40,000 nucleotides of DNA from Salarchaeum sp. JOR-1 (lineage in GTDB: Archaea > Halobacteriota > Halobacteria > Halobacteriales > Halobacteriaceae). A program made the translations under genes and the position numbers. The DNA is taken from assembly GCF_007833275.1 (NCBI RefSeq), contig NZ_CP042241.1:2303490-2343489 (forward strand). The letters are read 5' to 3'. The notes under the pieces are model-generated. The model was given only the letters and a program-made list of their open reading frames with translations, searched no databases and had not been told where the DNA came from. Numbering within the stretch: position 1 is the first letter of the stretch; every line of letters starts with the position of its first letter. Positions 5,516 to 31,737 of the stretch are shown piece by piece.

Positions 5516-6736
5516 ATGGCGACCTTCACGCGGGACACCCACATCTTCCAGGACGAAGATATGTTGCGCGACGACTATCAACCAGAGACAATTACAGCAC
5601 GCGAGTCAGAGCTGGACGCCTACCAGACCGCACTCCAACCAGTCATCAACGGCGCCCAACCACGAAACATCTTCCTCTACGGCAAAACCGGCGTTGGCAA
5701 AACAGCAGTCTCCCGCTATATTCTCGAGCAACTCCAACAGGACACCCAACAGTATGACGACGTCACCCTATCTGTTTTCTGGTTGAACTGTACGAACCTC
5801 TCCTCATCCTATCAGGTTGCCGTCAACCTCGTCAATACACTCCGACCAAACGATGAGCAAATCAGCACGACGGGCTATCCCCAACAACGCGTCTTCGATC
5901 TGCTGTACACCGAGCTTGATGCAATCGGCGGCACCATCCTCATTGTCCTCGATGAGATTGATCACATTGGTACGGACGACGAAATCCTCTACGAGATTCC
6001 ACGCGCCCGCTCAAACGACTACCTCACCACCACTAAACCCGGTGTCATCGGCATCAGCAACGACTTCAGCTTTCGCGACAACCTCTCGCCAAAAGTCAAA
6101 GACACCCTTTGTGAAGAAGAAATCCACTTCTCCCCATACACCGCGCCCGAACTCGAAGCTATTCTTGAACGCCGTGCGGAAGGCGCCCTCTACGAGGACG
6201 CGACTGAATCCGGGGTGCTCTCGTTGTGTGCGGCACTCGCCGCCCAAGACTCGGGCAGCGCACGCCAAACCCTCGACTTGCTATATCAGGCCGGTGAACT
6301 GGCTCGGGCCGCCGACCGCACACAGATCACCGAAGACGACGTCTACGCCGCCCGTAACAAACTCGAACGCAGCCAAATCGAACAAGGCATGCGAGAACTC
6401 ACCCGCCACGGCCATCTCTCGTTAGTTGCTGTCCTCCAACTTGCCCTCGATTCGAACGCCCCGTTCCGCGTTCGAGATATCTACCCAGCGTATCGAACAA
6501 TCGCCGAACAATCAGAGATCGATCCATTAGTCCGGCGACGAATGCACGACCACCTCGCCGACCTCGCCATGCTCGGCATCCTCGATCGGCAGTCCCGCAA
6601 TGAGGGCCGGTCTGGTGGTCAATACTACGAATACGAATTCGCCGTCGACCTTGACCTCGTTGCGACGGTCGTCACTGACTTCGACGGTATCACCCTGCCA
6701 CAGCGCGTTCGGAACGTGACACAGTCTGTCGAGTGA
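5516..6736 (+). CDS. orc1: Orc1/Cdc6 replication initiator (AAA+ plus C-terminal winged helix)
   Basis: 406 aa. Walker A is GKTGVGKT and Walker B is LIVLDEID. The sensor region reads [14 protein letters not shown]. The C-terminal wH region is present. Confidence 0.95.
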
Positions 6737-7033: not shown

Positions 7034-7987
7034 CTATGCGGAAGTGACCGCGTCGATGACGATTTCGGGGTCATGCATGAGGTGATGTTCGAGGTAGCTG
7101 CCTTCACCCATCCCGCCGCCGGTATGATTGGCTTCAGTGATGCCGAGGAAGGCTTGTTCTTTCAGCAGGCGGTAGACGCGGTCTTCTGAAAGGGGGTTGC
7201 TGCCTTCCTGGTCGGCAATTGTTGTGTACGCGGTGTAGATGCGGTGGGTGCGGAAGGCCTGATCCTGTGGGTTTTCTTGTGTGAGAAGAGCTAATGCGTG
7301 AAGGATGAATTTGACATGTGGTGTCGTGCCACTGACGAGGCGTTCGAAGCGATTTACCGCCGCATGGTGGACGGCGTCGGTCACGTGGTCGATGGTGACG
7401 GTGTCGTCGCCGCGTTTTTCGGCGAGACAGCCCGCCTCATACAATGTGTCAACAGCTTTGCGAGCATCCCCATGTTCTTTCGCGGCCAGCGCCGCGATCT
7501 TCGGGATGACACCGGACGCGAGCACGCCGTCTGCGAAGGCGTCGGTCCGATGGTTGAGAATGGCCTGGATTTGCGGGGCATCGTAGGGATCGAAGACGAG
7601 TTCGTTATCCTGAAGACTGGAGGCGAGGCGTTCGTTGATGCGGTCGCGGTAGGCGATTTTGTTACTGATACAGATGGCGCCGATATGGGTGTTGGATTTG
7701 CCGCTTTCACGTGCGCGAGTGAGACTGCGGAGCAGGGCATCGCCATCGAGTTTGTCAACTTCATCGAGAATGACGACGCAGGCATCGACGTTGTGGGTAG
7801 CGAGGAGTTCCCAGGTGAGATCCCAGTAGTCGGCCGCACCGATGCCCACGCGAGGAATGTCGCGGTCAGCGTCAAGGCGTGTGGCGAATTCACGGGCCAT
7901 TTCCCGGCTCGCCTTGGCTTCTGATTGATAGTCCGAACAGTCAATGTAGGCAAACCAGTTGTTGCAAGTACGATTTTCTTTATTCAT
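7034..7987 (-). pseudogene. 5'-truncated orc1/cdc6 paralogue lacking the Walker A region
   Basis: The 317-aa ORF starts at a position equivalent to about residue 85 of the neighbouring Orc1 (FAYIDC aligns with VFWLNC). It keeps Walker B (VVILDEVD), the sensor (GDARKAVDTLYEAG) and the wH domain. Only 54 bp separate it from the upstream RAMP gene, so the missing N-terminus is not present nearby. Confidence 0.8.
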
Positions 7988-8041
7988 TTGAACCCGTGAG
8001 TTTAACCCGGCGGGTTCAACCGGGTATTATCAGCGAGCGTA

Positions 8042-8959
8042 CTAGACTTTTGCGGAGTTTTCTATCACCTCCTCGGTAAATTCGTCGTCGGGTCGGGCTT
8101 CGACCGGCTTCACACGGAGTTCCCCGAAGCCGTACTTCGAGTGGGAACCGACCCGCGTGATGGCGTTCTTCGCCGTCTCGACCGGCCGGTCGCCCGTGTA
8201 GCCGACAACCTGTCCGTGGTCGATGGTCTCGCACCGGAACACGTCGCCGCCCTCGACGATCTTCTCCTCGCGGTGGCGCAGCTGGGACTCGTCGTCGACG
8301 CTCCACCACCACGGCACGTCCACGTCGTTCGTCGCCGGGTACTCCGACCGAAGGACGTACGGCGTGACGACCTCGAGGAGGTACGCCTCGGCGTCCCGAA
8401 GCCGGGAGTAGTCGAGCGCCTCGAGGTCGACCGTCTGCGTGTCCTTTAGCCGGGTCATTCCGTAGCCGTAGTTCCGCTGGCCACCGAACTGGAGTCCATC
8501 AAGCACGTCCTCGCCCAGCGGTAGCACGTCCGGGTCGTCGGCGTGGAGGTAGGCGTGGACGTACCACTTCGTCGTCTGGGCGTCCTTCCGGTAGTCGTCC
8601 GGGCGCCCCATGATGGTCTCGTGCGCCAGCGCCGGCTGTCGGTGCTGGGTGCGGATCGGGTGGACGTTCAGGGCGTCCCGCGGCCGGGAGTCGAGCAGCC
8701 ACGAGTGCGAGGGGTCGCGGAACAGGAACAGGTCGTCGTAGGCGTTCACGTCCGCCAGCGACGACCCGAGGTACGGCTTGATGCCGCCCTTCGAGTGTTC
8801 CTCGGGGAACGTCCCGAACTGGCCGGGGACGAACATCCCGTGACTCGCGTTGATCGACTGCGCCGTGTCGGGCGCGAGGTGCTGGCCGAACGCGTGGTAG
8901 ATGGCGTTGCCCGTGACGTAGTACGGGTGGCCGAGGTAGTCCATCTCCATCTCCCACAT
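8042..8959 (-). CDS. RAMP-superfamily protein with two glycine-rich loops (Cas5-like, HRAMP-type)
   Basis: Two RAMP G-loops are present: QFGGQRNYGYGMTRL and VGSHSKYGFGELRV. The start is placed at ATG 8959 (MWEMEMDY...), 17 nt after the upstream stop. The ORF-track extension to 9142 is Arg-rich overlap with the upstream gene. Confidence 0.65.
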   Translation of the reverse strand: MWEMEMDYLGHPYYVTGNAIYHAFGQHLAPDTAQSINASHGMFVPGQFGTFPEEHSKGGIKPYLGSSLADVNAYDDLFLFRDPSHSWLLDSRPRDALNVHPIRTQHRQPALAHETIMGRPDDYRKDAQTTKWYVHAYLHADDPDVLPLGEDVLDGLQFGGQRNYGYGMTRLKDTQTVDLEALDYSRLRDAEAYLLEVVTPYVLRSEYPATNDVDVPWWWSVDDESQLRHREEKIVEGGDVFRCETIDHGQVVGYTGDRPVETAKNAITRVGSHSKYGFGELRVKPVEARPDDEFTEEVIENSAKV

Positions 8960-8976
8960 CACTTGCTGGATGCGCG

Positions 8977-9768
8977 TCACGGCCGACCACCCCAGTTCTG
9001 GAAATCCTCGATGTACTGGAGCGCGGTCGACCAGCTCCAGATGCGCCGCAGGTTGGCGTCGAGCGCCCGTTCCCACTCGTCGCCGTCGGCGTCGACGGGG
9101 TGAGCGGTCAACCGCTGCCACGTCGACGCCCACGACCGCCACGGTCGGGAGCCGAGCCGGGCGAACGGCCGGCCGTCGCGGTCGCCGGTCGGGGCGATCC
9201 GCAGGGCGAACTCGTCGCCGGCGTAGACGGTGCGGTGGGCCACGATCTCCTCGGCGGGGTCGACCACGAGCGCGAGGTCGCGGAACTCGTGGCCGGCGCG
9301 GTAGTTGTCGAGCAGCGCCGCCACGAGCAGCGTGTGGTACTTCAGCGAGGTGTACGGGTAGTAGACGCTCTCGTTGAACGCCGAGACGACCTCACTGCCG
9401 AGCCACGCCCGATGGATGGTCTCGGCATCGTCCTTGGTCAGCAGCTGCCTCACGGCGCTCTCCACGTCCGCTCGTGTGAACTCCTCGGGGTCGTACCGGC
9501 TCTCCCCTGTGAGGAGCGAGAGCCGGTAGTGGTTCTCGTGGGTGTCGACCGTCTGCTCGGGCTGGCCGCTGGGCCGGCTAAGTGCCGACGCATCGCCGTC
9601 CGCGCCGAGCGGGACGGTCTGGTTCACCGGGACGCCCGCGAACGTCTCTGGGGCGTACTCGTGGGGCTCGCCGTTCAGTTTGTGAGCGTCGTGGCGGTAC
9701 GCGGCGACCATCTCGTCCTCGGGGCCGTCGTCGTCCTCGAAGTCGGTGAGGCGTGCGTTCTCGCTCAT
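8977..9768 (-). CDS. Conserved-looking uncharacterised protein between the two RAMP genes
   Basis: 263-aa ORF whose ATG overlaps the upstream stop in an ATGA. It is acidic. No motif was recognised. Confidence 0.6.
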   Translation of the reverse strand: MSENARLTDFEDDDGPEDEMVAAYRHDAHKLNGEPHEYAPETFAGVPVNQTVPLGADGDASALSRPSGQPEQTVDTHENHYRLSLLTGESRYDPEEFTRADVESAVRQLLTKDDAETIHRAWLGSEVVSAFNESVYYPYTSLKYHTLLVAALLDNYRAGHEFRDLALVVDPAEEIVAHRTVYAGDEFALRIAPTGDRDGRPFARLGSRPWRSWASTWQRLTAHPVDADGDEWERALDANLRRIWSWSTALQYIEDFQNWGGRP

Positions 9769-10634
9769 CCGTGATCACCGTCGATCCGGGAGGCGAGCGC
9801 GTCCTCGATCTCGTGGCGGTGGTTCTCGGACCACCGCTCGTCCTTGTCGTCCATTTTGTTGGTGTTGCTTTTCGCACGGTCGAAGACGCGCCTCAGTTCG
9901 CGCTCCTCGTAGAGCGGGTTGATGAGGTCGCAGTAGACGATGCCCGCACCGAAGTTCCGAGACCCGCCGAGTTGGTGCATAAAATCGGTGTTATGGGCGT
10001 TGAGGAACTCGACGGCCTCGGCCAGCAGCCCGAGGAACTCGGGCTTCGTCTCGCGGAACGAGAGGTGCCAGCAGCCGTCGAGATTCGCTACGGCGTCGAC
10101 CTCGGTGTTCCGGAGCGGCTCGCGGTTGTCTTCCTCGTTCCGGGAGACGACGTTTCGGTTGAGTCGGCGGTAGTGGCCCTCAGCCTGTCCGCGCTCGTAC
10201 TTCACCGAGGAGCGGACGGGCGAGAACTTGATGGGGCGGCGCATCAGTTTGCCGGGGACGCCGCCGAAGCCACCGAACAGGTCGAAGATCACACAGCCGT
10301 CGTCTTCCTTCGGGTCGTCGACGCACGCGCCCTTCTCGTGGTAGCCGTCCTCGAGGTCACGGTCGTACACGTCCTCTTTCCGGAAGTTGGCGTTGGACTC
10401 GCCGGGGTGGCAGGCGGTCGCGCCGCGCTGCTGAACGACGCCCTCCATCCCGTGACGAAGCCAGCCGGAAAGCGGGTAGGCGGGGATGATGCCGCCGATC
10501 TGGTTCTGCGGGTCATCGTCCTCGTAGTTGTCGCTCGATGCGTGGTGCCGGTCGGTCATAATCGAGTCACCTACGACGAGCAGGTCGCACTCGATCCGAA
10601 CGTACACATCCGTGATGTCGGTGATGTCTGTCAT
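9765..10634 (-). CDS. RAMP-superfamily protein, Cas7-like (Csm3/Cmr4-like), HRAMP-type
   Basis: IPAYPLSGWLRHGME corresponds to the Cas7 IPxSSxKGxLR motif. CVIFDLFGGFGG corresponds to the C..C.LFG motif. HQLGGSRNFGAGIV is a C-terminal G-rich loop. Confidence 0.72.
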   Translation of the reverse strand: MTDITDITDVYVRIECDLLVVGDSIMTDRHHASSDNYEDDDPQNQIGGIIPAYPLSGWLRHGMEGVVQQRGATACHPGESNANFRKEDVYDRDLEDGYHEKGACVDDPKEDDGCVIFDLFGGFGGVPGKLMRRPIKFSPVRSSVKYERGQAEGHYRRLNRNVVSRNEEDNREPLRNTEVDAVANLDGCWHLSFRETKPEFLGLLAEAVEFLNAHNTDFMHQLGGSRNFGAGIVYCDLINPLYEERELRRVFDRAKSNTNKMDDKDERWSENHRHEIEDALASRIDGDHG

Positions 10635-10664: not shown

Positions 10665-10799
10665 TCAGCGTGCGGAGAGGGCGGCGTGGAGTTCGTCTAC
10701 GCTGCCGACGGTAATGTCGCCCACTTTATACACCTTCTTCGTTTGACCATTCTCGTCCCGGTAGATGCGAGCCGTCACGCGGGAATCACTCGTCGGCAT
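10665..10799 (-). CDS. Possible 44-aa small protein (MPTSDSRVTARIYRDENGQTKKVYKVGDITVGSVDELHAALSAR)
   Basis: Hand-translated; it falls below the ORF-track cutoff. Its ATG overlaps the end of the upstream gene by 14 nt. It ends 30 nt before the Cas7-like start. Confidence 0.3.
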   Translation of the reverse strand: MPTSDSRVTARIYRDENGQTKKVYKVGDITVGSVDELHAALSAR

Positions 10800-11190
10800 C
10801 ATCCACCTCGCGTCGACGGTCAAGTTCCTCAGCAGCTTGGAACAGTATGGTAGCCAGTTCGCGGGCTTCGTCGGTCGTGAGACCGGTCAACTGTCCGGCT
10901 CGCACGTTACCGTCGCCCTTGGCCTCAATCTCCAGCGACACACCCTCAGTCCAGTACGTCACCTGAGCAAGCCGCTCGGTGAAATCGTCGTCGTTGAACG
11001 TGAGCCGACCGTACTCACCGTCGGCGCTGGCCGTCACTTCATCTGGTGTGATTTCACCGGTCACGTAGAGACTGGTGCCGAGCGGCTCCCAGTTTTCGAC
11101 ATTCTGGATGTCGTAGTCCTCATTCTCCCAGCGAGACGCTGCGAGCGCAGCGACGCCGCCGAGGTACTGACGACGGGTTAGGTCAGTCAT
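10786..11190 (-). CDS. Small Tat-signal secreted acidic protein
   Basis: The internal ATG at 11190 gives MTDLTRRQYLGGVAALAAS, a twin-arginine signal. It is a paralogue of the next gene (shared ...GL..DEARELA... pattern). It overlaps the upstream gene by 8 nt. Confidence 0.65.
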   Translation of the reverse strand: MTDLTRRQYLGGVAALAASRWENEDYDIQNVENWEPLGTSLYVTGEITPDEVTASADGEYGRLTFNDDDFTERLAQVTYWTEGVSLEIEAKGDGNVRAGQLTGLTTDEARELATILFQAAEELDRRREVDDADE

Positions 11191-11548
11191 CGAATTCTCC
11201 CTCCGCTGCATCGGTGGCGACCACCAGCCGGGCGGCAAGGTCGCGGGCGTCGTCGGGGTCGAGGCCGGTGCCGACCTTGATGGGGCCGGACATCCACCGG
11301 AGTCCGACGCCGCTCCAGCCGCCCTCTTCGTGAACGCCTTCAACTTCGAGCGGGCCACCATTCATCTCCGCGGTGACGTGGACGTTGTTGAGGTCTCCGG
11401 GGACGGAACCGCAGTCCGTCAGCGAGTGCGTCCCGTCGTCGGTGACACTCCGGTCTTCCACGATTTCCTCGGGAGCGGGCGTGTCGCCAGCCGCCGCCTG
11501 CGGGAGCGTAGCGAGCGCGGCGGCGGCGAGGAACTGACGGCGCTGCAT
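11183..11548 (-). CDS. Small Tat-signal secreted acidic protein (paralogue)
   Basis: The internal ATG at 11548 gives MQRRQFLAAAALATLPQAAAG. The ORF-track extension upstream is implausible. Confidence 0.65.
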   Translation of the reverse strand: MQRRQFLAAAALATLPQAAAGDTPAPEEIVEDRSVTDDGTHSLTDCGSVPGDLNNVHVTAEMNGGPLEVEGVHEEGGWSGVGLRWMSGPIKVGTGLDPDDARDLAARLVVATDAAEGEFDD

Positions 11549-11706
11549 TAAGCCGTCACCCCCTCGAAGCCCTTCCGGCCAGAAATGTAGCAGTCGGCGC
11601 ACGGGAAGCCTTCGGAGAGCTTCGCGCATTCGTCGCAGGTGTCTTCTTCAGTCGGTTCGACCGTCGTACCGAGACTTTCTTGCCCCGGCGCCGCGTTCGT
11701 TGACAT
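11548..11706 (-). CDS. Possible 52-aa zinc-ribbon-like protein (CDEC...CADC)
   Basis: Hand-translated: MSTNAAPGQESLGTTVEPTEEDTCDECAKLSEGFPCADCYISGRKGFEGVTA. Its TAA overlaps the next ATG as TAATG. Confidence 0.45.
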   Translation of the reverse strand: MSTNAAPGQESLGTTVEPTEEDTCDECAKLSEGFPCADCYISGRKGFEGVTA

Positions 11707-11798
11707 GGGTTCTTCATTCACCGTGGGGAACCCGGCCCGCGTGTCACAGCACGCGGGCGTTCCTTCGACCGCTACGCCCTGAGGGCCGGGCTTTCACA

Positions 11799-11893
11799 TC
11801 ACTGGTTACTATTTGTAGTCACTTATAGGTTACTGCTCACAGTCACTATGACTGTAACCAGTAATTAAGTAACTGCACGCAGTAATAGGTACT
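11799..11893. promoter_or_regulatory. AT-rich divergent promoter with iterated palindromic AGTNACT heptamers and a 9-bp inverted repeat
   Basis: AGTCACT occurs at 11817 and 11841, and AGTAACT at 11868. Related GGTTACT/GGTACT copies are also present. actggttac (11801-11809) is inverted against gtaaccagt (11854-11862). Confidence 0.4.
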
Positions 11894-12133
11894 ATGGCAG
11901 AAGCCAGCCAACGAGCGGGTATGGTAGACGACCAGTACCGTGGACTCCTCACCGAGCGTGAGCGTGAAATCATCAAGGGGGAGGCAGACGTTTCCGACAA
12001 CTACCGCTACCGAGTGGTGAGTCGCGTCCGAACCAAGATCGAGAACGTGGGTGAGGACGTGGAAATACTGGCGGAGAACCGCGACGATCTGCTCGAAGAG
12101 CTTCGAGATAAAGTCTGCGAGGGAGACGAGTGA
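11894..12133 (+). CDS. Small putative DNA-binding regulator (haloarchaeal plasmid/virus-type)
   Basis: 79 aa. The segment LTEREREIIKGEADVSDNYRYRVVSRVRTKI is an HTH-like segment common in haloarchaeal mobile elements. Confidence 0.65.
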   Translation: MAEASQRAGMVDDQYRGLLTEREREIIKGEADVSDNYRYRVVSRVRTKIENVGEDVEILAENRDDLLEELRDKVCEGDE

Positions 12134-12805: not shown

Positions 12806-14152
12806 TCAGACGAGGCTAGTGCCGTCGAACTCCCGCTGATCGTAGTCCATCTCCATCAAGTCGAGAATCGTGGGCGTGATGTCGTAGAGGTTCGTGTCCG
12901 CGATGCTGGCCGCTGGGTCATCGACGAAGAGCGTGGCGTCGTCGAACGAATGCATCCCGTTCCGCGGGCCGTGCTCGAACACGTCGTGGTCGTCACTGAA
13001 CCCCGCCTTCAGGTCGAAGCCCTCACGGGGGATCGCGACGAGATCGGGCGCGATGTCATCGTGTGGGCCCGCGAACGCGTCCGCCTTCGTGACCACGCGC
13101 TCGATCACTGGGTCGCCGTCCGGGCCCGTGAGCGATTCGAGCTTCGCCGCGAGGTCGTTTCGAACGTCGTCGTAGTCCGCCTGGGGAACGCTCCCACGTG
13201 GCTCGCGGCCGTCGAGGTTGAGGTAGAACCGCCCCGGAATGAACGAATACGCCTTCGTCTCGCTACTGATGTCGTCAAGATTCTCCGGGTCGCTCGTTCG
13301 GAAGTCGAGCCAGCCCTCGGCGTGAAGCCACGTGTTCAGGTAGACCTCGTACGCCTCGGTCTGGAAGCCGTGATCCGAGGCGACGATAAGCGTCACATCA
13401 TCCGGAAGCTGGTCGCGGAGCCGGCCGATGTACTCATCTACTTTCTCGTAGAAATCGAGAAACTCCTCCTTGTACTCGCCGTCCTGGGCGTAGTCGCCGT
13501 AGAGGAAGTGGTTCACGCGATCCGTGGTCATGAACACCCCGAAGAAGAGGTCCCAGTCGTCCGCCGCGATATAATGAGAGAACGCCTCGTAGCGCGCGTC
13601 CAGCGTCTCGTGGGCGTTCTCGATGAACGCGGACTTGTCGTCTTGGTGGCCGAGTTTCGCGTTCGCGTCGATCCGGTAGTCGATGGACTCCAGGTACTCT
13701 GCGACCTCCTGGTCCGAGGACGCCTTCTCGATGCCGGGGGAGAGGAATCCGGAGACCATGCGCTGGAGGTTCCCCTGGGGCGGGAAGGTGACGGGGACGT
13801 TCACTACTGTGGCGTCCCGGCCGGCGTCCGTGACGCGATCCCAGACCCGGGTCGCCTGCACGTCACGCCCCATCGGCACGTACGTCTCGTAGCTTCCGTT
13901 CTCCCGATCCTGGAACCCATACACGCCCGTCTCACCTGGATTCACGCCGGTGGTGAGCGCGGGCCAGCACGCCGACGACTCCGGCGGCACAATCGACTCG
14001 ATCTCCCCACTTGCGCCGTCCTCACTGAGCGCGTGGAGGTTCGGGAACACGTCTGGGTTGTCCTGGATGAGGCTGTCGGGGACGCCGTCGATGCCGAGGA
14101 AGGCGACGCGGGGCTTGTCGGTGTCGCCGCGGAGTTTATCGAACAGCCCCAT
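12806..14152 (-). CDS. Alkaline-phosphatase-superfamily protein (nucleotide pyrophosphatase/phosphodiesterase-like)
   Basis: 448 aa. The N-terminal VAFLGIDGVP and CWPALTTG segments and the later LIVASDHGF segment are metal-site motifs of this fold. Confidence 0.85.
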   Translation of the reverse strand: MGLFDKLRGDTDKPRVAFLGIDGVPDSLIQDNPDVFPNLHALSEDGASGEIESIVPPESSACWPALTTGVNPGETGVYGFQDRENGSYETYVPMGRDVQATRVWDRVTDAGRDATVVNVPVTFPPQGNLQRMVSGFLSPGIEKASSDQEVAEYLESIDYRIDANAKLGHQDDKSAFIENAHETLDARYEAFSHYIAADDWDLFFGVFMTTDRVNHFLYGDYAQDGEYKEEFLDFYEKVDEYIGRLRDQLPDDVTLIVASDHGFQTEAYEVYLNTWLHAEGWLDFRTSDPENLDDISSETKAYSFIPGRFYLNLDGREPRGSVPQADYDDVRNDLAAKLESLTGPDGDPVIERVVTKADAFAGPHDDIAPDLVAIPREGFDLKAGFSDDHDVFEHGPRNGMHSFDDATLFVDDPAASIADTNLYDITPTILDLMEMDYDQREFDGTSLV

Positions 14153-14155
14153 CGT

Positions 14156-15175
14156 TTACATGTACCCGAGATCGCGAAGCCGCTCCATCAGGTCTTCCTT
14201 GTCCTGGGCGCGGCCCGCACGCTCCGTGGTCTCTTCAAGGTTCTGCAACCACGCCGGTTCGTCCTCGGCCTTCTCCGTACTGACCTCCGACCCGAGACTC
14301 CGGAAGCCCTCGAAGTACTTCGGCGATATGGGGATGTCCGCGTGCGTGAGGTCGTTCGGGAGATCGTCGTAGGATTGGGGGACGTAGCCGTCGTCCGGGA
14401 ATCCCGCGACGGTTTCGGGGACGACGTAGTACCAGAAGGCGTCCCAGACCGCGCGCTCGTCGAACTGCAGGATCGGCTGCACTCGATCGTGGGGCGGATA
14501 GATATCGGGGTCGTGACGCGGCGAGTAGAACGTCTCGTCGGCGCGGGCTTCCTGTTCGTCCCACCGAATCCCACTGAAGATGCCGTCCACGTCGTACTCC
14601 TCTAAGGCGTCATTGAGGGCGACGGTCTTCAGGAGGTGGTTGCCGACGTAGGTGTCGAGGAGGAACGGGAAGCTGTCTTCCTCGTACTCGAGGAGGTCGC
14701 GCACGTGGTGCTGGTTGTGCTCCGAGAGTTCGCTGATCGGGATGTCGTCGCCCGGCGTCAGGTCGTGTTCGGCGACATACTCGCCGACGTCCTCGTTCCG
14801 CGCGTAGATGACGTCGAGCTCCCACTCTTGGGCCCAGTAGTCGACGAAGTCATGGAGGTCGTCGAAATGCTGGAAGTGATCGATGAAGATTGCTGGTGGG
14901 AGGTCGTACCCGAACTCCTCCGCTACTTCCTTGACGAAGTAGAGCGTGAGGGTGGAGTCCTTCCCGCCCGTCCACATGATCGCGGGGTTCTCGTACTCCT
15001 CCAGGCCCTGTCGAGTGACTTCGATAGCCTTCTCGATCTTGTCTTCGAGACTCGGATACTCCTCGGGAGATTCGTTCTCGCCGCTACTGTAGTCGACGTC
15101 GAGATACTCCGGGAACGACTGACTGGCCATGACTATACCGACGACGTAGTCTGGGGAGGATAAAGGCTTGTTCAT
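14156..15175 (-). CDS. PAPS reductase / ATP-sulfurylase-subunit-2 family protein (PP-loop ATP pyrophosphatase)
   Basis: 339 aa with a PP-loop (WTGGKDSTL). It sits 3 nt upstream of the phosphodiesterase-like gene. An alternative start is ATG 15130. Confidence 0.85.
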   Translation of the reverse strand: MNKPLSSPDYVVGIVMASQSFPEYLDVDYSSGENESPEEYPSLEDKIEKAIEVTRQGLEEYENPAIMWTGGKDSTLTLYFVKEVAEEFGYDLPPAIFIDHFQHFDDLHDFVDYWAQEWELDVIYARNEDVGEYVAEHDLTPGDDIPISELSEHNQHHVRDLLEYEEDSFPFLLDTYVGNHLLKTVALNDALEEYDVDGIFSGIRWDEQEARADETFYSPRHDPDIYPPHDRVQPILQFDERAVWDAFWYYVVPETVAGFPDDGYVPQSYDDLPNDLTHADIPISPKYFEGFRSLGSEVSTEKAEDEPAWLQNLEETTERAGRAQDKEDLMERLRDLGYM

Positions 15176-15292
15176 ACCATCAGGTAGTGTTCAGATAAGC
15201 TTTTTTCGTGCGAATCCGAACGTTTGAAGCTGATTTTCGACAGTATCTGCTTCTAGATAGCTGAAACATCTATAGGGCAGGTTGGTTCGGCG

Positions 15293-15583
15293 TTATAATT
15301 CTCCAAGGAAACGTTCAACGCTGTTCCAATTACCGTGTTTCTCGTATCTGTAATCGAGCCTGTGTCGGGGCAGTATTGCTTGCAGCCATGGTGCAGAATC
15401 AACGAAATGTTTGTCGCAGAGTTCCGCGATAATCACCTCGGTGATCGTCCGATTTTTATTGGAGAACCCTTGTAGTACGGCAATCGTTTCGTGTCGGAAC
15501 TGATAACAGCGTACAGCCAGAGCGTTCCATTTAGATGAATAATTTCCCGTCAACCGTAACACGATTCGTCTTTGCGCTATCAA
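15293..15583 (-). pseudogene. C-terminal remnant of an IS6-family (haloarchaeal IS240-type) transposase
   Basis: HFVDSAPWLQAILPRHRLDYRYEKHGNWNSVERFLGEL resembles the DGAxWL...HGNRNxVERxFxExKRR tail of these transposases. There is no ATG, no catalytic N-terminal part, and no IRs were found. Confidence 0.5.
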
Positions 15584-15900
15584 GCGGCCGTAAATCTACC
15601 TTCGGTAACCAATTGCGACCGGTCGTTCGACACTCAACATATCAAAACTGAATTAGAATCCGGAAGCAGTAGTCCAATCAAATAAGTTGGATACCAAGCT
15701 TCAAGTCAGGTTCGAATTTCGTCTCTCCCACTAGAAACCTAACTCAAAGCAATCAGGACTCCAATGAGGCGGGAATTTCTGGCATGAACACTAGAAGATT
15801 GCCCCGTGTCACTCTTCATCCTTATCTGGACAGTACTCCTGTACAGACTAGTAAACTATATACGGCCAACATTTCGGCTTCGCGATAACTGGGGACCTCG

Positions 15901-16440
15901 TTGAAACCGGGGAAACAGTTATTAAAACCGCTATACTTTCGCTTCCTTTCAACAGCGGCCAACAGGCGATCGGATTTGCCTAAATCTAAATTTAACCCAC
16001 TCAAAACTGCGCCCGATCACATTGTTGTTGTCACAGTCGATGCGTTGCGGCCAGATTCTGTCCCGGAAATCGGAATAGAGTTTTCACATGCTATTACACC
16101 GGGTACATGGACGTTCCCAGCAGTTACGAGCATTCTATCTGGACTGTATCCTCACGAACACGGGGCCAATACTATTGTCACAGATGGGGATGAAAACCAA
16201 CAAGTACCCTCCGAGCCACAAGAGATAGCCAATCCCTCCGGTGGTTGGCCCAGTCTTACCGATATATACCCAGTAATTCTAAACACAGTGGGAGAGTCTG
16301 TCAAAGGAGAACTATGGACTGAACCAATCCCGGACGACAGAAGTGGTCTCTGTGAGGCCAGCCATTATGGAAGTGAGCGAAAAGCTGTCAATTGTGGAAC
16401 GCAGAAATTACTTCGGTCAAAGAACGACAATATTACGTAG
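15901..16440 (+). pseudogene. Sulfatase-like (alkaline phosphatase superfamily) N-terminal fragment
   Basis: VVVTVDALRPD and TPGTWTFPAVTSILSGLYPHEHG match the sulfatase N-terminal metal/active-site region. The ORF begins at TTG, loses similarity after about 100 aa, and is far too short to be full length. Confidence 0.5.
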
Positions 16441-16720
16441 TTGGCTCCATTAACACTGATACGAATACTGGATCACTTTCGCGTGGGATCGATGACGAGT
16501 TAAATTCAAAACTTCTTTAAAAATGACTGGCTTCAAGTCAGACTCAATTAGTTAGTGGTTTTGCGGAAGAACAACTCGAAGCGCTTGGATATAAGTAATG
16601 TGTCTACGAGTAAGAATTTAATTTGGTCGAGAACTGATGGCGGAGTTCAAGCCAAGACTAGATAATATCGTTAATTGAGATAAGTTAATGGAAGCAATTT
16701 ATACCAGTTATTGATGAAAC

Positions 16721-18256
16721 ATGGATGAGGATAATTTTGATGACGCTGGCGTCAGTACCCTTGCAACTCAGGGCGGTATCACCTTCTTTGGCAGTGTTTT
16801 CGGACGAGCGTTGGGTTTCGTCTTCACGATCGGAGTTACTAAATTAGTCTCTGCCTCAACGTTCGGAGTCTACTCACTCGGATTGGCTGTAATTCTCTTT
16901 ACTAAATCAGTGGCCGATCTAAGTGTCTATCGGGGAATTGACTACTACATCCCCCAGTATCTTCCTGATGAGAACTACCAGAAAGCGCGAAATCTATTCG
17001 CCACCACGACTGTAATTGCGCTTCTTGGAACCGGACTTGCAGTACTCGTCCTCTGGTTGGTTACGCCACAGATAGCCTCGATATTTGGGGAGGGGAGATT
17101 AACCGAGATACTACCAATTCTATCTCTTGCACTCCCATTTCTGGCTTTCCGCGATATCGTGATTCGCATGTTTATCGCAATAAAGCAATTGAAGTATCGA
17201 GTGTTTCTACGTGATCTTCTTCTTCCTGGAGGGAAACTACTTGTCACACTGGGCCTCATATTTGCAGGTTACGAACTTGTGGCCCTATTGGGGGGATACC
17301 TATTGTCGGTAATCGTGGTGGCTCTCGCAGGAGTTATTTTCCTGCAACGCCGGGTCGGCTGGTTGTTTGACGGCCCAGTCGAAGGTTTCGGGCTGGGCGA
17401 ATTATTCTCCTATTCTCTTCCGTTAGTCTTCGCTGGCGTAATTTATGCGACAATCAGCCAAATAGATTTCTTTATAATTGGATATTACCCGAATACAAAT
17501 TCGAAGGATCTTGCAATATATAAGGTAGCTAATCTCCTGGGGGTTAATATACTGATATTTTTGAACTCATTGGCACCAGTCTTCAAGCCAATGGTTACCG
17601 AGGTAAAAAATGACAATGAGTTGCTCAACAGCCGTTACAGTCTCGCAGCACGCTGGATACTTTTATGCACCCTCCCAATTGCACTGACACTCATCTTAGC
17701 ACCAAGGACATATCTATCTCTGCTGTTCACTCCCGTATACGCCGCTGGCGCAGGAGCGTTAATTGTTCTTGTACTCGGCTATCTAGTGAATTCCTCAGTA
17801 GGCCCAGAAGGGATGGTTCTTGAGGGACTTGGATTTACCAGATTGACTTTAGCAAACACTGTTTTGATGGTCAGTGTAAACGCTCTCCTCGATCTTCTCC
17901 TCATACCACGACTCGGAATTCTCGGTGCTGCAGTTGGAACTGCAGTGGGAATTACATGCGGCGTTATCGCAGGAGTTCTCGAACTCCGATATTTCCGGGG
18001 ACTCTTGCCCTTTGATAGAAGAACCGTCTACGTCCTTCTCTCAGGTGTGCCACCGCTGTCTGTTGGATGGATTGTTACCGCTTTAATCGACAGCCAATTA
18101 CTCCTCGCAGTAACCCTCCCAGTTATCGTCCTTGTATCCTATCTAATCCCTCTCCAGATCTTCGATGTCTTTGGTGAAGAAGACAAATTGGTTGCAGACC
18201 TCATCGAAAAGAAATTTGGAGTTGGCCTACTAGGTTGGTTCATTCACCGGAAATAA
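16721..18256 (+). CDS. Oligosaccharide/polysaccharide flippase (Wzx-like, MOP superfamily)
   Basis: 511 aa and hydrophobic almost throughout, with more than 10 TM segments. The organisation is typical of flippases in archaeal glycosylation clusters. Confidence 0.85.
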   Translation: MDEDNFDDAGVSTLATQGGITFFGSVFGRALGFVFTIGVTKLVSASTFGVYSLGLAVILFTKSVADLSVYRGIDYYIPQYLPDENYQKARNLFATTTVIALLGTGLAVLVLWLVTPQIASIFGEGRLTEILPILSLALPFLAFRDIVIRMFIAIKQLKYRVFLRDLLLPGGKLLVTLGLIFAGYELVALLGGYLLSVIVVALAGVIFLQRRVGWLFDGPVEGFGLGELFSYSLPLVFAGVIYATISQIDFFIIGYYPNTNSKDLAIYKVANLLGVNILIFLNSLAPVFKPMVTEVKNDNELLNSRYSLAARWILLCTLPIALTLILAPRTYLSLLFTPVYAAGAGALIVLVLGYLVNSSVGPEGMVLEGLGFTRLTLANTVLMVSVNALLDLLLIPRLGILGAAVGTAVGITCGVIAGVLELRYFRGLLPFDRRTVYVLLSGVPPLSVGWIVTALIDSQLLLAVTLPVIVLVSYLIPLQIFDVFGEEDKLVADLIEKKFGVGLLGWFIHRK

Positions 18257-18264
18257 ATACCTCG

Positions 18265-19260
18265 TCACCGATACCCGAGGGCCTCAAGTTTTTCTTCGAG
18301 ATCTTCTTCAAACGTGTCCGCGGTATCTGTTGGCGGCTCGGAGACAGTGTGTCGACGTGGGCCATGATTGATGACTAGCCAGGGTACCTTGCACAGTTCG
18401 ACAGTATGAGGATGGCGATAGTGCTCGTAAAGTTTTCCTAATATGGGGTATGGTTGTTCACCGAACATTTCCCCATGATCTGCTGAAACAACCACCTTTC
18501 CGTCGATCTCTGAGATAAGTTCTTCTACTTCCTCCAGGACGATATCGAGCGTTTCACGATATGCCTTCCTCGCTTTTTCGACCTCTATCTCGCCATCAGC
18601 GACCGCCTCAAAGAGTCTAATCTTATCTGACTGGTCGTTTGGATCGACTCCACCGAGATTTAATTGGTCGCGTAATTTGTCCCCCGTCGGGCCTAGTGGC
18701 GGATCGTGGGGCTGCATATAATGAACAATTACCCGTTTATCGTCATACTCATCATGGGCACGTATCGCCGCATTTGTAACCGTCTCAGGCCTCACACAAT
18801 TTGCCTTAGTATCCCAACTAGATAACGGGTCGTCAACAATTGCGTGGAATACTCCGTCATCTATGCGATCAACATGAGGGTTTGCAGTTACATAAACTGT
18901 ATCATGTAATTCTCGTCCAGCAAAATTCTCTCTGATGAACTTTGGGCTATCCGGCCCTTGAGAAATCCGACTATCTAGTGTCCCCGGTAAATCATTTTGA
19001 TTCTCGAAATCATCATAGCGGCACGCATCTAAGAGAATGAGTGTATCCCAATCTGCCTCCATAACATCAATCCCGGACCCAAACCTAAACTGGAATATTC
19101 GATTGAACAAGGGTTTAAAAAGATTAGAAATCTTTGCCACATTGGGGCGATCCGTGATACCACCCCCGAGCCGAGCCTGAATAAATAATTGGGCTTTTAA
19201 TATTAACTGAACAATCCCGTGTTCCTTATAGATTTCAAATACTCTCCTCAGTAGAGACAT
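18265..19260 (-). CDS. Alkaline-phosphatase-superfamily-like protein (sulfatase/phosphotransferase-like)
   Basis: 331 aa. DWDTLILLDACRYD and VVVSADHGEMFGE resemble the two metal-binding motifs of the fold. Confidence 0.55.
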   Translation of the reverse strand: MSLLRRVFEIYKEHGIVQLILKAQLFIQARLGGGITDRPNVAKISNLFKPLFNRIFQFRFGSGIDVMEADWDTLILLDACRYDDFENQNDLPGTLDSRISQGPDSPKFIRENFAGRELHDTVYVTANPHVDRIDDGVFHAIVDDPLSSWDTKANCVRPETVTNAAIRAHDEYDDKRVIVHYMQPHDPPLGPTGDKLRDQLNLGGVDPNDQSDKIRLFEAVADGEIEVEKARKAYRETLDIVLEEVEELISEIDGKVVVSADHGEMFGEQPYPILGKLYEHYRHPHTVELCKVPWLVINHGPRRHTVSEPPTDTADTFEEDLEEKLEALGYR

Positions 19261-19572
19261 GAAGGATTCCCCATCTTATGAGTGGAACCTGACCCGGCGC
19301 ATATTTCCAATCTTCGGTTTGAATTCCGTCCTGTTATCTGGCCCTGTACAATGATATGCCGATAAATGGTTTAACACTCAACCAAACAATATTTCTTCCA
19401 TGGATGTGGGAATCTTTGCAACACAGTCCCTCTATGACTCTAATACCCAGAACTCAATCTCTGGGCGCATTCAGGCCCCATCCAAACGGCAAATATACTA
19501 TCGCTCATCCCGAGAGGCCGTAACAACCATTGTGGAAGCCGTGATATCTTGCTAAATCCAGTGTCTGAATGA

Positions 19573-20507
19573 CTGCTCTATTGAAAATGGAAGACGGCGG
19601 CAGGATTACTCCGTAATGAGTTTGAGGAAATGAGGTCGAGACGGCGATTATGGGAGTCGCTTTACTCGACCTCGTTGAGACAGCACTACGTGTAGCTAAA
19701 CAAGCGTTGGGGAAACGAGCGGGCAAGCCCGACTCAGGCGGGCTTGCCCGCGAGGCCCACATCGTCGCTCACTGTATTCGCAAGGAGGAGGGCCACAGCT
19801 ACGTCGAACTCGTTGATCGGCTGAGTCTCATGCCGGCGGTCTGCGACCGCCTCGGCATTCACCCGGACGCGCCGCCTGATCCAACCACGTTCTACCACTC
19901 GTTCGACCGCTACGCGATGTACGTCTGGCGGGCGTTGCTGCGCATTTCCGCGCAGCAACACCCGCAGTCTGGTCACGTCGCACTGGACAGTACGTTCTTC
20001 GAACGGAAACAAGCCTCACAACACTATCTCCAGCGGTGTGGGCGAAGTGTCAAGACGATCAAAGCGACGACGCTGACCGATACAGAATCGTTGGCGGTGC
20101 TGGACGTCCACTGCTGTATCGAGCGTGAACACGATACGAAGGCTGGCCCGCGGGTCGTCCGCCGGAATGCGGACGACCTGCGGGCCGTGGCCGCCGACAA
20201 CGGCTTCCAAGACTGGCATACCGAATACGAGATCGCTGCACATGATATCGAGTACCTCGTTCACTACCGCGGTTCAACAGCGAAGGCAACCGCGAATAAC
20301 GCACTCATCCGAGCGAAGGGCTACACACAGCGATGGATGGCAGAAACGTCTTACTCGACGGTCAAGCGAACGCAGGACTCCGCCCTGCGTTCGCGGTTCT
20401 GGTACCGCCAGTTCCGTGAGATCGTTCTCCTGTTCGCGCTCAACAACCTCAAGAAGCTCGCCAAAACGCTATGATCCCGCTCCCGTACCGCATTTTCAAT
20501 AGAGCAG
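19573..20507 (+). mobile_element. IS5-family insertion sequence (935 bp)
   Basis: Perfect 17-bp terminal inverted repeats CTGCTCTATTGAAAATG lie at 19573-19589 and 20491-20507. They enclose a single DDE transposase ORF. No target-site duplication is evident. Confidence 0.8.
19650..20474 (+). CDS. IS5-family DDE transposase
   Basis: 274 aa. The segments ALDSTFFE...SQHY, AADNGFQDW and the C-terminal RWMAETSYSTVKR are typical of haloarchaeal IS5/ISH-type transposases. Confidence 0.88.
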   Translation: MGVALLDLVETALRVAKQALGKRAGKPDSGGLAREAHIVAHCIRKEEGHSYVELVDRLSLMPAVCDRLGIHPDAPPDPTTFYHSFDRYAMYVWRALLRISAQQHPQSGHVALDSTFFERKQASQHYLQRCGRSVKTIKATTLTDTESLAVLDVHCCIEREHDTKAGPRVVRRNADDLRAVAADNGFQDWHTEYEIAAHDIEYLVHYRGSTAKATANNALIRAKGYTQRWMAETSYSTVKRTQDSALRSRFWYRQFREIVLLFALNNLKKLAKTL

Positions 20508-20690
20508 CTCACTCCAGTTTGGAATGTCGAGGGCCTGAAGATAGGGTCCGCGAGAACCGACGAACGGGTCATCCGAATCCGTGGTCTGGAATCGCTGATG
20601 AACGTTCCGCGCGGCGTTACCGAGGTCGCCGAGCAGGTATGCCTCATAGGCGTCCTTGATCTGTTCTGCGCGGCGAGCAGGATCGTTCAT
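20496..20690 (-). pseudogene. 3'-disrupted last gene of the defence-like operon; the last 3 codons and the stop come from the IS
   Basis: The ATG overlaps the upstream stop in an ATGA. The reading frame runs into the IS5 right IR at 20507 (…NWSE|LLY*). The left flank of the IS does not continue a convincing ORF. Confidence 0.5.
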
Positions 20691-21463
20691 CGGGTATCGA
20701 TCTCCATTCGAATTGCCGATTCGAGGTCATCGACGCCTTTCATCTCCTTGATGACCTCGACAGAGAGTTCGTTCAGACGGACGCTACCCTCCTCCGCGAA
20801 GCGCTTGAGTATGTCCATGGCATCCTCGCTCAGTCCGTGTTCCTCCTGGAACGAATCCCATCCGTGCTTTCCGGCGTTCTGTTCCCACTTATCGGTCAAG
20901 TTGTCCCACCGGGACTCCAGAGACGATAGGGTTCTGTCCTCGTCCCAGATCGACTCGTTGAGGAACGCATCCATGTCCGATAACACCTCCTCGAAATCGC
21001 TCCCGGCACCCCCGATGATCTGATTGAGGTCACGGGCGGATTCGATTTCCCCTTCCCATTCCCGCTGGTGTTCTCGAATCGCGTCTATCGTCTCGCTCCG
21101 AGCATGACGAACTACCTCTCGAGCGTCCTCGACGCTCTGGAGGATTTCATTCGTCCGCCTGTCTTCGGCCGCACTGAGCACTTCCTCATCGGTGATGTCA
21201 GAGACCTCACGGACACGACGGACCGCCCTATCTACTTCGTCGAGGCGGTCGCCGCCGAAGACGCTCGTTAGCACTCCGTCGTAGAAAAGCAGGCCTTCGA
21301 CGGACGAGTCGAGACTGCTGAGTTCCCGCCCCAAATCCCCGATGTTGTCCTTCGCTCGCCGGATCTCCGCTTCCAGATCGTTGGCCCGTTCGGCACGATC
21401 CGCTTTCTCCCCGATCTCCTCGATTTTCCGCTCGAGTTCGTCCTCGAACTGAGATTCGCTCAT
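20687..21463 (-). CDS. Acidic coiled-coil protein, function unknown
   Basis: 258 aa with heptad-like E/R/L-rich segments. It overlaps the upstream ATPase gene as TAATG. Confidence 0.75.
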
Positions 21464-24400: not shown

Positions 24401-24501
24401 ACGTGGGTCTCTCGGAAGACCTTGGGAGTCTTCTGCTGTGACTCCGGTTTGATGAAATCCTCTACGACATCTCGGTCCCAGTTGCGAACCATTTGAGTCA
24501 T
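21463..24501 (-). CDS. Large P-loop NTPase (1012 aa) with an internal poly-acidic linker
   Basis: Walker A is KGEVGSGKSH (about 24244-24267). Walker B-like is PVLICEDLT. A D/E-rich tract lies at about 22786-22938. Resemblance to BrxC/PglY- or PbeC-type defence ATPases is only a hypothesis. Confidence 0.85.
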   Translation of the reverse strand: MTQMVRNWDRDVVEDFIKPESQQKTPKVFRETHVEIDKIRAEILRPHSGDDAFVTESQFRDAVLDSDLEDDNRIFIVKGEVGSGKSHLCQWLEYEINGYGESDGTDDEHVAIHISRSNTRLDEILEILHDPIDKEYEEVNDISSLNPEDVADFIIQGLHTFYKGQGALRSFDLEEFLEPRSNAEDFRTILVENIEEYQESVEKEGQEQDIKEYLLSREDYGRICFSAFGETKREDDVYPVVRRAVHDLLTRNIGIEDFKRELEDISEAYVEEGKRPVLICEDLTTFSVLKDDLLDHIFELSSGHYDVIMGWTTGWERENIDDALSTSEDSLTYMKQRTQGYLSMTDDNGQAYFLEGQSAPVVLVKAYLDAIKEHSEASAEVPEEAFDSVYPFNEAFIRHVYANLVQDGNLQQTPRILLVHVIAECLTSDVPPFEAVQNNSYVRQRPYLIGINEHSTPCLELTQWYALKHRGQLWLPTEVFDAFGVDTHGAAEKDGNVFFDTSFAAGDVTVIEREPGAEPTSERIDTDDEDEADREPEEDESEEVEEETDEEGDEGDDEEGRPGPEPEVEVPPEDYREFQSWLMDGTEYASADRFRDGVVATLERWHDPTRLANENSTARNTTGIYFDRGSEPPVVIRGADSPASMSFEVPHGTENEELYRQMLHHGYADSFEDDANFDKLRGWATDKVVEYRGRMRRDIEGHLPEQMTIEEFVVLAHFLVMNIGKGKTDLSPELVFEGYQMEETSPLSYQSDVGIELPQGLEGAFERASNHTGDIGSLARGFFLLKENVVDYERLNEAINGVSENLDSYLSGLSTTSVDDLADAYRIGTTRNNSQKRFGKIVEDFSDLAGELEKVEQQVDVGDLQEETDHYRRFHHLSHTQEELAELYDEMESALGPLNVTHRQKWGDVGQLLNDSESDLGLGDFRSTLNEIEDAETDDAISSIALLHEYQRSLNESAAWEVYEVFAEMVEALEDAEGSEVGDFRDQVESSTEFEVFSDARDSVQQTIGGVQ

Positions 24502-26235: not shown

Positions 26236-26279
26236 CCCGCGGTCACCTGATAAATGTATTGGAGGGATAGACCTTCGGC

Positions 26280-29426: not shown

Positions 29427-29530
29427 GTGTCAACCCTCATTACCCGGTCAAATAAGCATGGCGTCGGGGTTCTGAGAGCTCACTTACCGATGCCCCCCTA
29501 GGTTCCATCTATAGTGACCCAGCAGTAAGG

Positions 29531-29812: not shown

Positions 29813-29865
29813 TAATTCGGCACCTGTGGTAGTAGTCTGCTATGAGCACTGAATGAGAAGCCGTA

Positions 29866-30225: not shown

Positions 30226-30314
30226 ACTATACCACCGGAGCCTGACTGTCTGCTCTCATGACCGGTAGCGGTACAGCCGTTGAACTTTTGCGGATCGTCG
30301 TCGTCAGAGTACAT

Positions 30315-31736: not shown

Positions 31737-31737
31737 G

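Follow-up and report, generated by a model that had tools for sequence, protein, structure and literature searches.

A three-gene HRAMP module of Salarchaeum sp. JOR-1 without an adjoining nuclease gene, and the case for a miniature Cas10 as its middle protein

The minus strand of a 40,000-nucleotide stretch of the haloarchaeon Salarchaeum sp. JOR-1 (contig NZ_CP042241.1, positions 2,303,490 to 2,343,489; the whole stretch is called the window below) carries a compact group of three genes, named here A, B and C. A sequence-only reading of this DNA had proposed that the triad is an array-less module of the HRAMP type, a kind of CRISPR-related system predicted in Halobacteria. Its genes are as follows, in the order of transcription.

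9765..10634, minus strand: gene A, 289 amino acids, a Cas7-like RAMP protein (backbone subunit of the Csm3/Cmr4 type)
8977..9768, minus strand: gene B, 263 amino acids, DUF8168 (PF26506), proposed here as a miniature Cas10
8042..8959, minus strand: gene C, 305 amino acids, a Cas5-like RAMP protein (Cmr3/Csm4 type) with two glycine-rich loops

Genes A and B overlap by 4 nucleotides (ATGA, 9765-9768) and a gap of 17 nucleotides separates B from C (8960-8976). This chain, the 263-residue middle protein, the motifs IPAYPLSGWLRHG, DLFGGFGG and GGSRNFGAG of A and the two G-loops of C (GGQRNYGYG and GSHSKYGFG) had all been announced by the sequence-only reading and are all present in the sequence. 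The start of gene C was placed at the ATG at 8959, with the stop at 8042; the mechanical open reading frame extends to 9142 and the extension was set aside because it overlaps B. All three frames have a GC content of 0.87-0.92 at third codon positions (GC3) and acidic products, as genuine haloarchaeal genes do, and the overall GC content of the triad (0.63-0.68) is above that of its flanks. Compared with Halolamina rubra, the differences at codon positions 1, 2 and 3 amount to 22/19/95 for A, 31/31/91 for B and 27/18/112 for C. Divergence between orthologues thus falls mostly on third positions, a pattern indicating that A, B and C are intact and under purifying selection.

The same reading had seen no CRISPR array and no cas1, cas2, cas3, cas6 or cas10 in the 40 kb, and our searches agree with it. 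Neither Tandem Repeats Finder nor a direct-repeat search detected a CRISPR-like array in the window, and the Pfam and PADLOC scans found no Cas1, Cas2, Cas3, Cas6 or Cas10 among the window proteins scanned. The sole matches to Cas models were those of TnpB (1321-2640) to Cas12f models, as expected for an IS605 TnpB. We gathered 80 related genome loci, called and clustered their genes, and surveyed 82 loci for arrays and cas genes. Just one of the 82 (L040) has a CRISPR array no more than 10 kb from its triad, and phmmer searches with T. thermophilus and Halocatena proteins as references, few in number and thus of limited sensitivity, detected no Cas1, Cas2, Cas6, Csm2, Csm5, Cmr1, Cmr5, Cmr6 or full Cas10 in any of them. 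The array of L040 (Halarchaeum sp. P4, 12652-13476) is built of an ordinary haloarchaeal repeat, GTTACAGACGAACCCTAGTCGGGTTGAAGC, and lies about 1 kb after the triad. This normal array, and the fact that the window is blind beyond its own ends, could be taken to mean that the triad is only part of a regular type I or type III CRISPR-Cas locus, the rest of which (array, cas10, cas6 and adaptation genes) lies just beyond the 40 kb, or else a remnant in decay. Against such an origin, 81 of the 82 loci have the triad but neither arrays nor cas genes in the 10 kb to each side of it, the module has a defined 3' boundary (see below), the three genes are unbroken and evolve under purifying selection, and the proteins form families apart from the canonical Csm and Cmr proteins, with A and C having remote matches only. 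We consider the fragment explanation close to refuted and leave it a very small residual probability.

The identity of A and C as RAMP proteins emerges from their families. Window A matches the Pfam RAMPs model below the cutoff (E = 0.029) and the PADLOC Csm3 model at 1.5e-3, while 43 of the 62 members of the A family, each scanned singly, match Csm3/Cas7 type III models and no others (best E 7e-8). The AlphaFold2 model of A is of low confidence (pLDDT 50), and its top 50 matches in PDB are without exception Cas7-type chains (type VII Cas7, type IV Csf2, Csm3 and Cas7-11). The order of its secondary structure elements (beta1-alpha1...alpha2-G-loop-beta4) is RAMP-like, with GGSRNFGAG lying between the second helix and the last strand. 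Four residues of A are invariant (C75, H76, C104 and C114), which suggests a zinc site. Window C matches PADLOC Cmr3 at 1e-6, and Cmr3/Cas5 models are matched by 60 of the 61 members of the C family (best 7e-9), only one of which touches a type IV Cas5 model; in a PDB search the G-loop of C aligns to that of Csm4 (E 0.29). Comparisons by hhalign against single reference proteins were uninformative, as the accepted pairs A-Csm3 and C-Cmr3 were also missed, and we therefore built type III profiles (e.g. Csm1, Csm3 and Csm4) from 80 metagenomic type III loci. Against these profiles C aligns to Csm4 with P = 2e-4 (probability 45%) and A to Csm3 with P = 0.059 only. The RAMP assignments of the sequence-only reading hold on this family-wide similarity of A to Csm3/Cas7 and of C to Cmr3/Cas5. 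A and C are very remote relatives of the type III RAMPs, which matches the literature on HRAMP.

The order A-B-C is maintained in about 70 loci from many haloarchaeal genera, and at the nucleotide level the triads of different genera are about 80% identical. Every named homologue is haloarchaeal, and so are 79 of the 80 genome loci; the remaining one is a 3-kb contig assigned by binning to Elusimicrobia. Homologues of B were detected on 25 plasmid records, all of them haloarchaeal, and in none of 50,697 phage records; public annotation calls the genes of these modules hypothetical throughout. The loci fall into two subfamilies. Subfamily I, with about 45 of the 80 loci, is that of the window and is also represented on Halobacterium salinarum plasmids and in Natrialba magadii; no nuclease gene adjoins its triad, and variable small genes stand upstream instead. 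Subfamily II, whose B proteins are about 50-55% identical to window B, has conserved genes downstream of C in most of its loci: a protein of about 222 amino acids with an RNase H-fold/DEDD exonuclease domain (Pfam RNase_H_2, 4.7e-5), an HNH nuclease of about 350 amino acids (Pfam 1.2e-10) or, alternatively, a protein of about 245 amino acids without a Pfam match. The gene content of subfamily II is the composition given for HRAMP in reviews (PMC8730458, PMC12669027). The lack of an adjacent nuclease that the sequence-only reading had remarked on is thus general for subfamily I and not a local accident, and the recognition of a nuclease-less subfamily is an addition of the present analysis.

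HRAMP was reportedly first described by Makarova et al. in 2019, as summarised in later reviews. These reviews, written by the discoverers, define it as an array-less, type III-derived system in which homologues of Cas5 and Cas7 are accompanied by uncharacterised proteins and usually also by nucleases (PMC8730458, PMC12669027). The locus studied here is like HRAMP in its occurrence in Halobacteria, its diverged Cas7 and Cas5, its conserved uncharacterised middle protein and its closest resemblance to type III, and it likewise has neither a CRISPR array nor adaptation genes, all of which supports the match proposed at the outset. It differs in one respect: published HRAMP comes with nucleases, mostly of the HNH and PD-(D/E)xK kinds, whereas none adjoins the triad in the window or in subfamily I. 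As the nuclease link is worded as 'typically associated' (PMC12669027), a nuclease partner is probably not obligatory for HRAMP. We regard the locus as a member of HRAMP with high confidence.

B is the best conserved protein of the triad. Its 870-957 homologues are all tagged PF26506, a family named DUF8168 in some sources and DUF8574 in others, and an exhaustive HMMER pass over 1.84 billion representatives yielded only 157 clusters at 50% identity. When both subfamilies are aligned, H26, D27, H29, K30, H36, N49, D57, S64, R65, P66, H77, R82, W122, E133, H145, Y156, R241 and R242 are invariant, and the motifs HDxHK, ADxxAxxxSR, FNE, PYTSLKYHxLL and LRRIxSWSxxLQ are kept in B relatives of just 24-40% identity. 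The pattern looks catalytic, and the invariance of His, Asp and Glu residues across such distant relatives argues for catalysis and against a purely structural role. The distant full-length members (P0263-P0360, 24-40% identity) keep HDxHK, SLKYH and SWSxxLQ and are rich in Lys and Asn, not acidic, and therefore probably come from non-halophilic organisms; they might be counterparts from the ARAMP systems of Asgard archaea, to which we return below, or an undescribed lineage.

The fold of B points to Cas10. An AlphaFold2 model computed from a 90-sequence alignment, with homologues that included those of a second database search made with the subfamily II alignment, is confident (pLDDT 87.7, pTM 0.88) and consists of about 160 helical N-terminal residues followed by about 100 C-terminal residues of alpha/beta structure. 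When this model was compared with PDB by Foldseek, ranks 1 to 21 were all occupied by Cas10 (Csm1/Cmr2) from at least eight organisms, and other families appeared only from an E-value of about 2. The best match, 4uw2_B, has E = 0.065 and a probability of 0.89 over about 200 aligned columns. Because Cas10 is the natural partner family of Cas5 and Cas7, it is unlikely that the top match fell on it by chance. A targeted hhalign test of an 81-sequence Csm1 profile against a diverse B alignment gave, as the best local alignment (P = 0.015), PYTSLKYHtLLvaAL of B on the Cas10 hallmark PDVSLYDHLktTAAIA and, as an alternative (P = 0.025), ADxxAxxxSR on ADxlSSxER. At a permissive threshold residues 1-263 of B are co-linear with residues 1-418 of Csm1 (HD and Palm1), with YRHDAHK placed on LLHDIGK and LVVDP on LLVxGDxSGIQ. 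Gene order adds to this: the place of B, immediately before the Cmr3-like gene, is that of cas10/cmr2 before cmr3 on T. thermophilus pTT27. Csf1 of type IV-C is a published precedent for a 'large subunit' that is small and bears an HD domain of the Cas10 type, and the partner proteins of HRAMP were still labelled uncharacterised in a 2022 review (PMC8730458). In all, fold, motifs and gene order suggest that B probably derives from the Cas10 large subunit, and we would put an active nuclease with an HD-like site in B at slightly less than an even chance. The explanation of the locus that we rate best, by a modest preference, is an array-less and highly reduced derivative of a type III effector, confined to Halobacteria, in which B would be the remnant of Cas10 and whose role would be defence or exclusion.

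Several results weigh against this explanation. The Foldseek E-values for B are weak (0.065 at best) with a query-normalised TM-score of about 0.35, and the hhalign probability for B and Csm1 is just 3%. Window B has no match in Pfam, NCBIfam or PADLOC, 37 diverse members of the family have no Cas10 match in PADLOC at E-values up to 10, and B profiles searched against PDB sequences returned nothing relevant. The AD motif follows the HD motif by 30 residues in B and by about 78 in Csm1. No candidate guide RNA came to light as an array, an Rfam family or a conserved structured RNA, and the sole conserved non-coding element, described below, behaves more like a DNA-level signal. The operon also contains genes for proteins with twin-arginine translocation (Tat) signals, that is, secreted proteins, which would be unexpected for a cytoplasmic complex targeting nucleic acids. 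Finally, the sequence-only reading had stated that the function of HRAMP had not been put to experiment, and our search of the literature collection available to us likewise turned up no experimental paper on any HRAMP. The hhalign comparison itself has little power either way, in that non-RAMP negative controls gave P-values of 0.11-0.57 and the accepted pair A-Csm3 gave 0.059.

With no similarity between B and Cas10 at the level of hidden Markov models, and with fold and profile matches that are statistically weak, B could also be a family-specific subunit of an HRAMP module that is unrelated to Cas10, either structural like Csf1 or another enzyme. In the nuclease-less subfamily the complex would then act only by RNA binding or cutting through Cas7, or by recruiting nucleases encoded elsewhere, for instance at a second HRAMP locus that lies in the same genome and belongs to the nuclease-bearing subfamily. 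The last possibility is given some substance by the at least nine genomes among the 80 loci that carry two modules, often one of each subfamily, and in which a supply of nuclease in trans is conceivable:

L006/L056: Halosimplex pelagicum
L019/L077: Haloarcula onubensis
L032/L066: Halobellus inordinatus
L013/L073, L023/L061, L016/L037, L020/L065, L009/L044 and L036/L057: further two-module pairs

The coexistence of nuclease-less and nuclease-bearing modules in one genome hints at cooperation or a division of labour. Many genomes, on the other hand, carry the nuclease-less module alone, the best structural matches of B are exclusively Cas10, the natural partner of Cas5 and Cas7, and the invariant His, Asp and Glu residues of very distant B relatives point to catalysis. 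A B protein unrelated to Cas10 seems to us rather unlikely on this evidence, though worth serious consideration.

The preferred reading, in which B is a Cas10 remnant, places the module close to type III systems (Csm/Cmr), with which it shares a Csm3/Cmr4-like backbone, a Cmr3/Csm4-like Cas5 and a B gene placed like cas10/cmr2, whose product is similar, by fold and motifs, to the HD and Palm1 portion at the N-terminus of Cas10. Unlike type III systems, it has no array and, as far as the phmmer survey of the 82 loci could detect them with its limited sensitivity, no Cas6, Cas11 (Csm2/Cmr5), Csm5 or Cmr1/Cmr6. B has 263 amino acids, whereas Cas10 has about 800, aligns at best to residues 1-418 of Cas10 and is without the GGDD cyclase palm. 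Cyclic-oligoadenylate signalling is consequently not expected, and no CARF or SAVED effector was found nearby.

Type IV systems are also reduced type III derivatives made of Cas7, Cas5 and a small 'large subunit', and they are often plasmid-borne. The likeness extends to the model of A, which matches Csf2 chains as well, and to type IV-C, whose Csf1 bears a Cas10-related HD nuclease domain (PMC8730458). This domain is reported to be C-terminal in type IV-C, whereas B, like Cas10, has its HD motif at the N-terminus. An array and a Cas6-family enzyme are normally retained in type IV systems, which use DinG or other partners; here there is no array and no DinG, and a single C protein touches a type IV Cas5 model. 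A gene for a PAPS-reductase-domain protein (14156-15175) recalls the CysH-like partner of some type IV systems, but it is 3.5 kb away with unrelated genes in between and is not conserved with the triad. The ARAMP systems of Asgard archaea are reportedly the work of Makarova et al. in 2020, as cited in a review. They resemble the present module in being array-less and nuclease-associated, with components that are distant relatives of HRAMP's (PMC8730458, PMC12669027), and differ from it in that most ARAMP loci have a distinct Cas1 (PMC8730458), which is not found at this locus.

Comparison of the flanks of the triad led to the identification of one conserved non-coding element:

7954..7989, minus strand: a 36-nucleotide AT-rich motif, GACTGAATAAAG(A/T)AGATC(G/A)(T/C)ATTnnCAACAACTGaTA

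The core of the motif (GACTGAATAAAG..ATCGTATTnnCAACAACTGATA) is 90-100% conserved across genera. In most of the approximately 35 subfamily I loci that have it, it occurs as one copy, in the orientation of the operon, about 51-52 nucleotides after the stop codon of C; this position is shared among loci L001-L046 and L065, and the motif is missing from nearly all subfamily II loci. Similarity between loci ends sharply just past it. A co-directional open reading frame starts 28-85 nucleotides further on in about half of the loci, and in the others a convergent gene ends at the edge. The co-directional neighbours look housekeeping-like by eye (hydrolase, membrane protein, nucleotidyltransferase, aldolase). 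Three roles for the motif were tried and found wanting. It is not a CRISPR-like repeat or a structured guide RNA, as there is a single copy per locus, RNAalifold finds 0 conserved pairs and Rfam has no match. That its copies are terminal inverted repeats of a transposon is not supported as a general feature: extra copies, near small 'cluster 7' genes and insertion sequence ends and sometimes inverted upstream, are confined to 8 of about 40 loci, the window has one copy, and one comparison of the L012 flanks by hand showed no target-site duplication. It is also not a driver of variable effector genes downstream of C, half of the neighbours being convergent and the rest unrelated and housekeeping-like by eye. 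Because similarity ends at the motif and the neighbours are unrelated, the most plausible role of the motif, from these alignments, is to mark where a horizontally moving cassette ends on its 3' side, and it may act as an outward promoter or operator in addition. A function as an unstructured RNA handle is conceivable.

Immediately beyond this boundary in the window lies the gene that the sequence-only reading had called a truncated orc1:

7034..7900, minus strand: an N-terminally shortened Orc1/Cdc6 protein without Walker A (Pfam Cdc6_lid 4e-22, Cdc6_C 1e-15)

The annotated open reading frame (7034..7987) begins with an ATG at 7987 that falls within the conserved motif. The probable product has 288 amino acids and starts at the ATG at 7900; it retains the Walker B, lid and winged-helix domains and has no Walker A. 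A matching 288-residue frame with 85% amino acid identity stands behind the same motif in Halobacterium sp. KA-4 (L027), and the two genes differ by 131 synonymous and 42 non-synonymous codon changes. The shortening of the N-terminus was therefore rightly noticed, whereas the notion of a pseudogene or debris was rejected, as the codon changes speak for purifying selection on a live gene. Retention by selection of an Orc1 without a P-loop is unusual, and a full-length orc1 (5516-6736, plus strand) is convergent to the short one. We did not count the short Orc1 as a component of the module because it stands behind it in just 2 of the 31 loci in which the downstream flank was examined.

The two orc1/cdc6 genes flanking the module in the window, with the short form right behind the boundary motif in two genomes, raise the question of a device that is not immune at all but serves maintenance, competition or regulation on haloarchaeal megaplasmids and integrated elements, in a manner comparable to plasmid type IV systems, for example by controlling replication or rival replicons through RNA guidance or RNA binding. 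The frequent residence of the family on megaplasmids (the 25 haloarchaeal plasmid records mentioned above) would fit such a function, as would the sharp boundary and many unrelated genomic contexts expected of a horizontally moving cassette and the high nucleotide identity of the triad across genera. We find this improbable, since the association with Orc1 is limited to the 2 of 31 flanks, the coupling of the sister subfamily to genes for HNH and exonuclease enzymes fits target destruction, and in the window the module shares a defence island with a Dpd system and a helicase-nuclease (listed below).

On its upstream side the triad is preceded by four small genes:

10665..10802, minus strand: cl8, 45 amino acids, upstream of A, with homologues in the same place in 6 other loci
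10786..11190, minus strand: a protein with a twin-arginine signal, recognised from the sequence
11183..11548, minus strand: a second protein with a twin-arginine signal, recognised from the sequence
11548..11721, minus strand: a CxxC...CxxC mini-protein, recognised from the sequence

The cl8 proteins share the motif RVTARIVRxxDGExxxEYRVGGV...A.E.AL..R. Their gene overlaps the preceding open reading frame by 17 nucleotides and ends 30 nucleotides before A, with which it is probably co-transcribed. The upstream small genes are joined by overlaps of the TAATG and ATGA types, their products having the N-termini MQRRQFLAAAALA and TRRQYLGGVAALA, and this arrangement gives all four the appearance of translational coupling with the HRAMP operon. 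A plasmid of Halobacterium hubeiense is similar to the window at the nucleotide level from the triad as far as position 11548, and equivalents of 70, 125 and 131 amino acids stand upstream of the triad in that plasmid and in Hbt. salinarum. In other loci this place is taken by different small proteins that are Cys-rich or have a Tat signal (clusters 13, 23 and 29). Further upstream lies a divergent gene:

11894..12133, plus strand: a 79-residue homologue of 'cluster 7' (BLASTP E = 3e-13 against the representative)

Cluster 7 genes are found upstream on the opposite strand in at least nine loci, and the 79-residue protein is a possible regulator. In the AT-rich spacer, at 11797-11847, two and a half copies of AGTGACT-N6-AGTAACC follow one another as direct repeats and resemble an operator.

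A defence island (20687-39164) lies in the right half of the window. The first five entries below make up a Dpd-type 7-deazaguanine DNA modification system, and the others are further genes of the island:

33091-35994: DpdA/DpdC fusion
21463-24501: DpdH-like protein
30436-31131: QueC
31738-32511: radical-SAM enzyme
36082-37116: TGT
26280-29426: UvrD-PD-(D/E)xK helicase-nuclease
38010-39164: BrxD-like ATPase
24498-26235 and 20687-21463: several unassigned genes

Between the module and this island, at 12806-15175 on the minus strand, a gene for a type I phosphodiesterase/nucleotide pyrophosphatase (448 amino acids) adjoins that of the PAPS-reductase-domain protein (339 amino acids). Both have a high GC3 like that of the HRAMP genes, have no PADLOC match and are not conserved beside the triad. 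The TnpB gene (IS605 OrfB, 1321-2640) and a DDE transposase gene (19650-20474) are both on the plus strand, and a low-GC island (0.45-0.47) at 15000-19500 contains a polysaccharide-biosynthesis/flippase gene. As a whole, the window is pieced together from horizontally acquired segments.

How would such a module work? In the preferred reading, that of a reduced type III effector, A would polymerise along an RNA, and C would cap one end of this RNA and dock B, which would have kept of Cas10 an HD-type metal-dependent domain and the first palm-like domain and would have lost the cyclase palm, the zinc finger and the C-terminal domain. The bound RNA would pair with a complementary invader transcript or nucleic acid, whereupon the HD-like site of B would cut nucleic acid; the Cas7 subunits may cut as well. 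The outcome would be defence against, or exclusion of, competing mobile elements. In subfamily I, B would be the only dedicated nuclease, whereas subfamily II would add the HNH, DEDD-exonuclease and other nucleases encoded downstream. Complex formation, RNA binding, nuclease activity of B and a defensive role are all inferred here from sequence comparison and modelling, and for an RNA-guided defence role we consider the case evenly poised; the supporting context is the defence island of the window and the residence of the family on megaplasmids. A more speculative proposal, which we think doubtful, is that the triad needs no further gene and by itself makes up a complete minimal effector of a type III-like kind, with a mini-Cas10 and loaded with RNA of non-CRISPR origin. 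Such RNA could be a host or self transcript or derive from the invader, and the 36-nucleotide element might supply or mark it. If this proposal were true, no known class 1 interference complex would be smaller, and the module would be a natural case of guide use independent of CRISPR.

The locus presents HRAMP in its barest form, three core genes without a partner nuclease. To our knowledge, HRAMP has existed since 2019 as a prediction from computation only. Close relatives of the module reside on Halobacterium salinarum plasmids, a copy of the sister subfamily is annotated in a Haloferax volcanii genome, and both species are genetically tractable. In the Halobacterium salinarum NRC-34001 records (H32-H35, including NC_002608 and NC_010368) B matches in two pieces and carries no annotation, so that this copy may be frameshifted or disrupted; the gene is intact in other Hbt. 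salinarum strains. As a kind, the system was already known from computation; what the present analysis adds is the nuclease-less subfamily, the case for a mini-Cas10, the boundary motif and the live short Orc1. Should the mini-Cas10 reading fail, the locus would be an ordinary member of a known predicted family. Should it be true, the missing activity may be a Cas10-type HD site in B with H26 and D27 as key residues, and the module would provide a very compact RNA-binding effector scaffold and fill a step in the reductive series that leads from type III through type IV-C to HRAMP.

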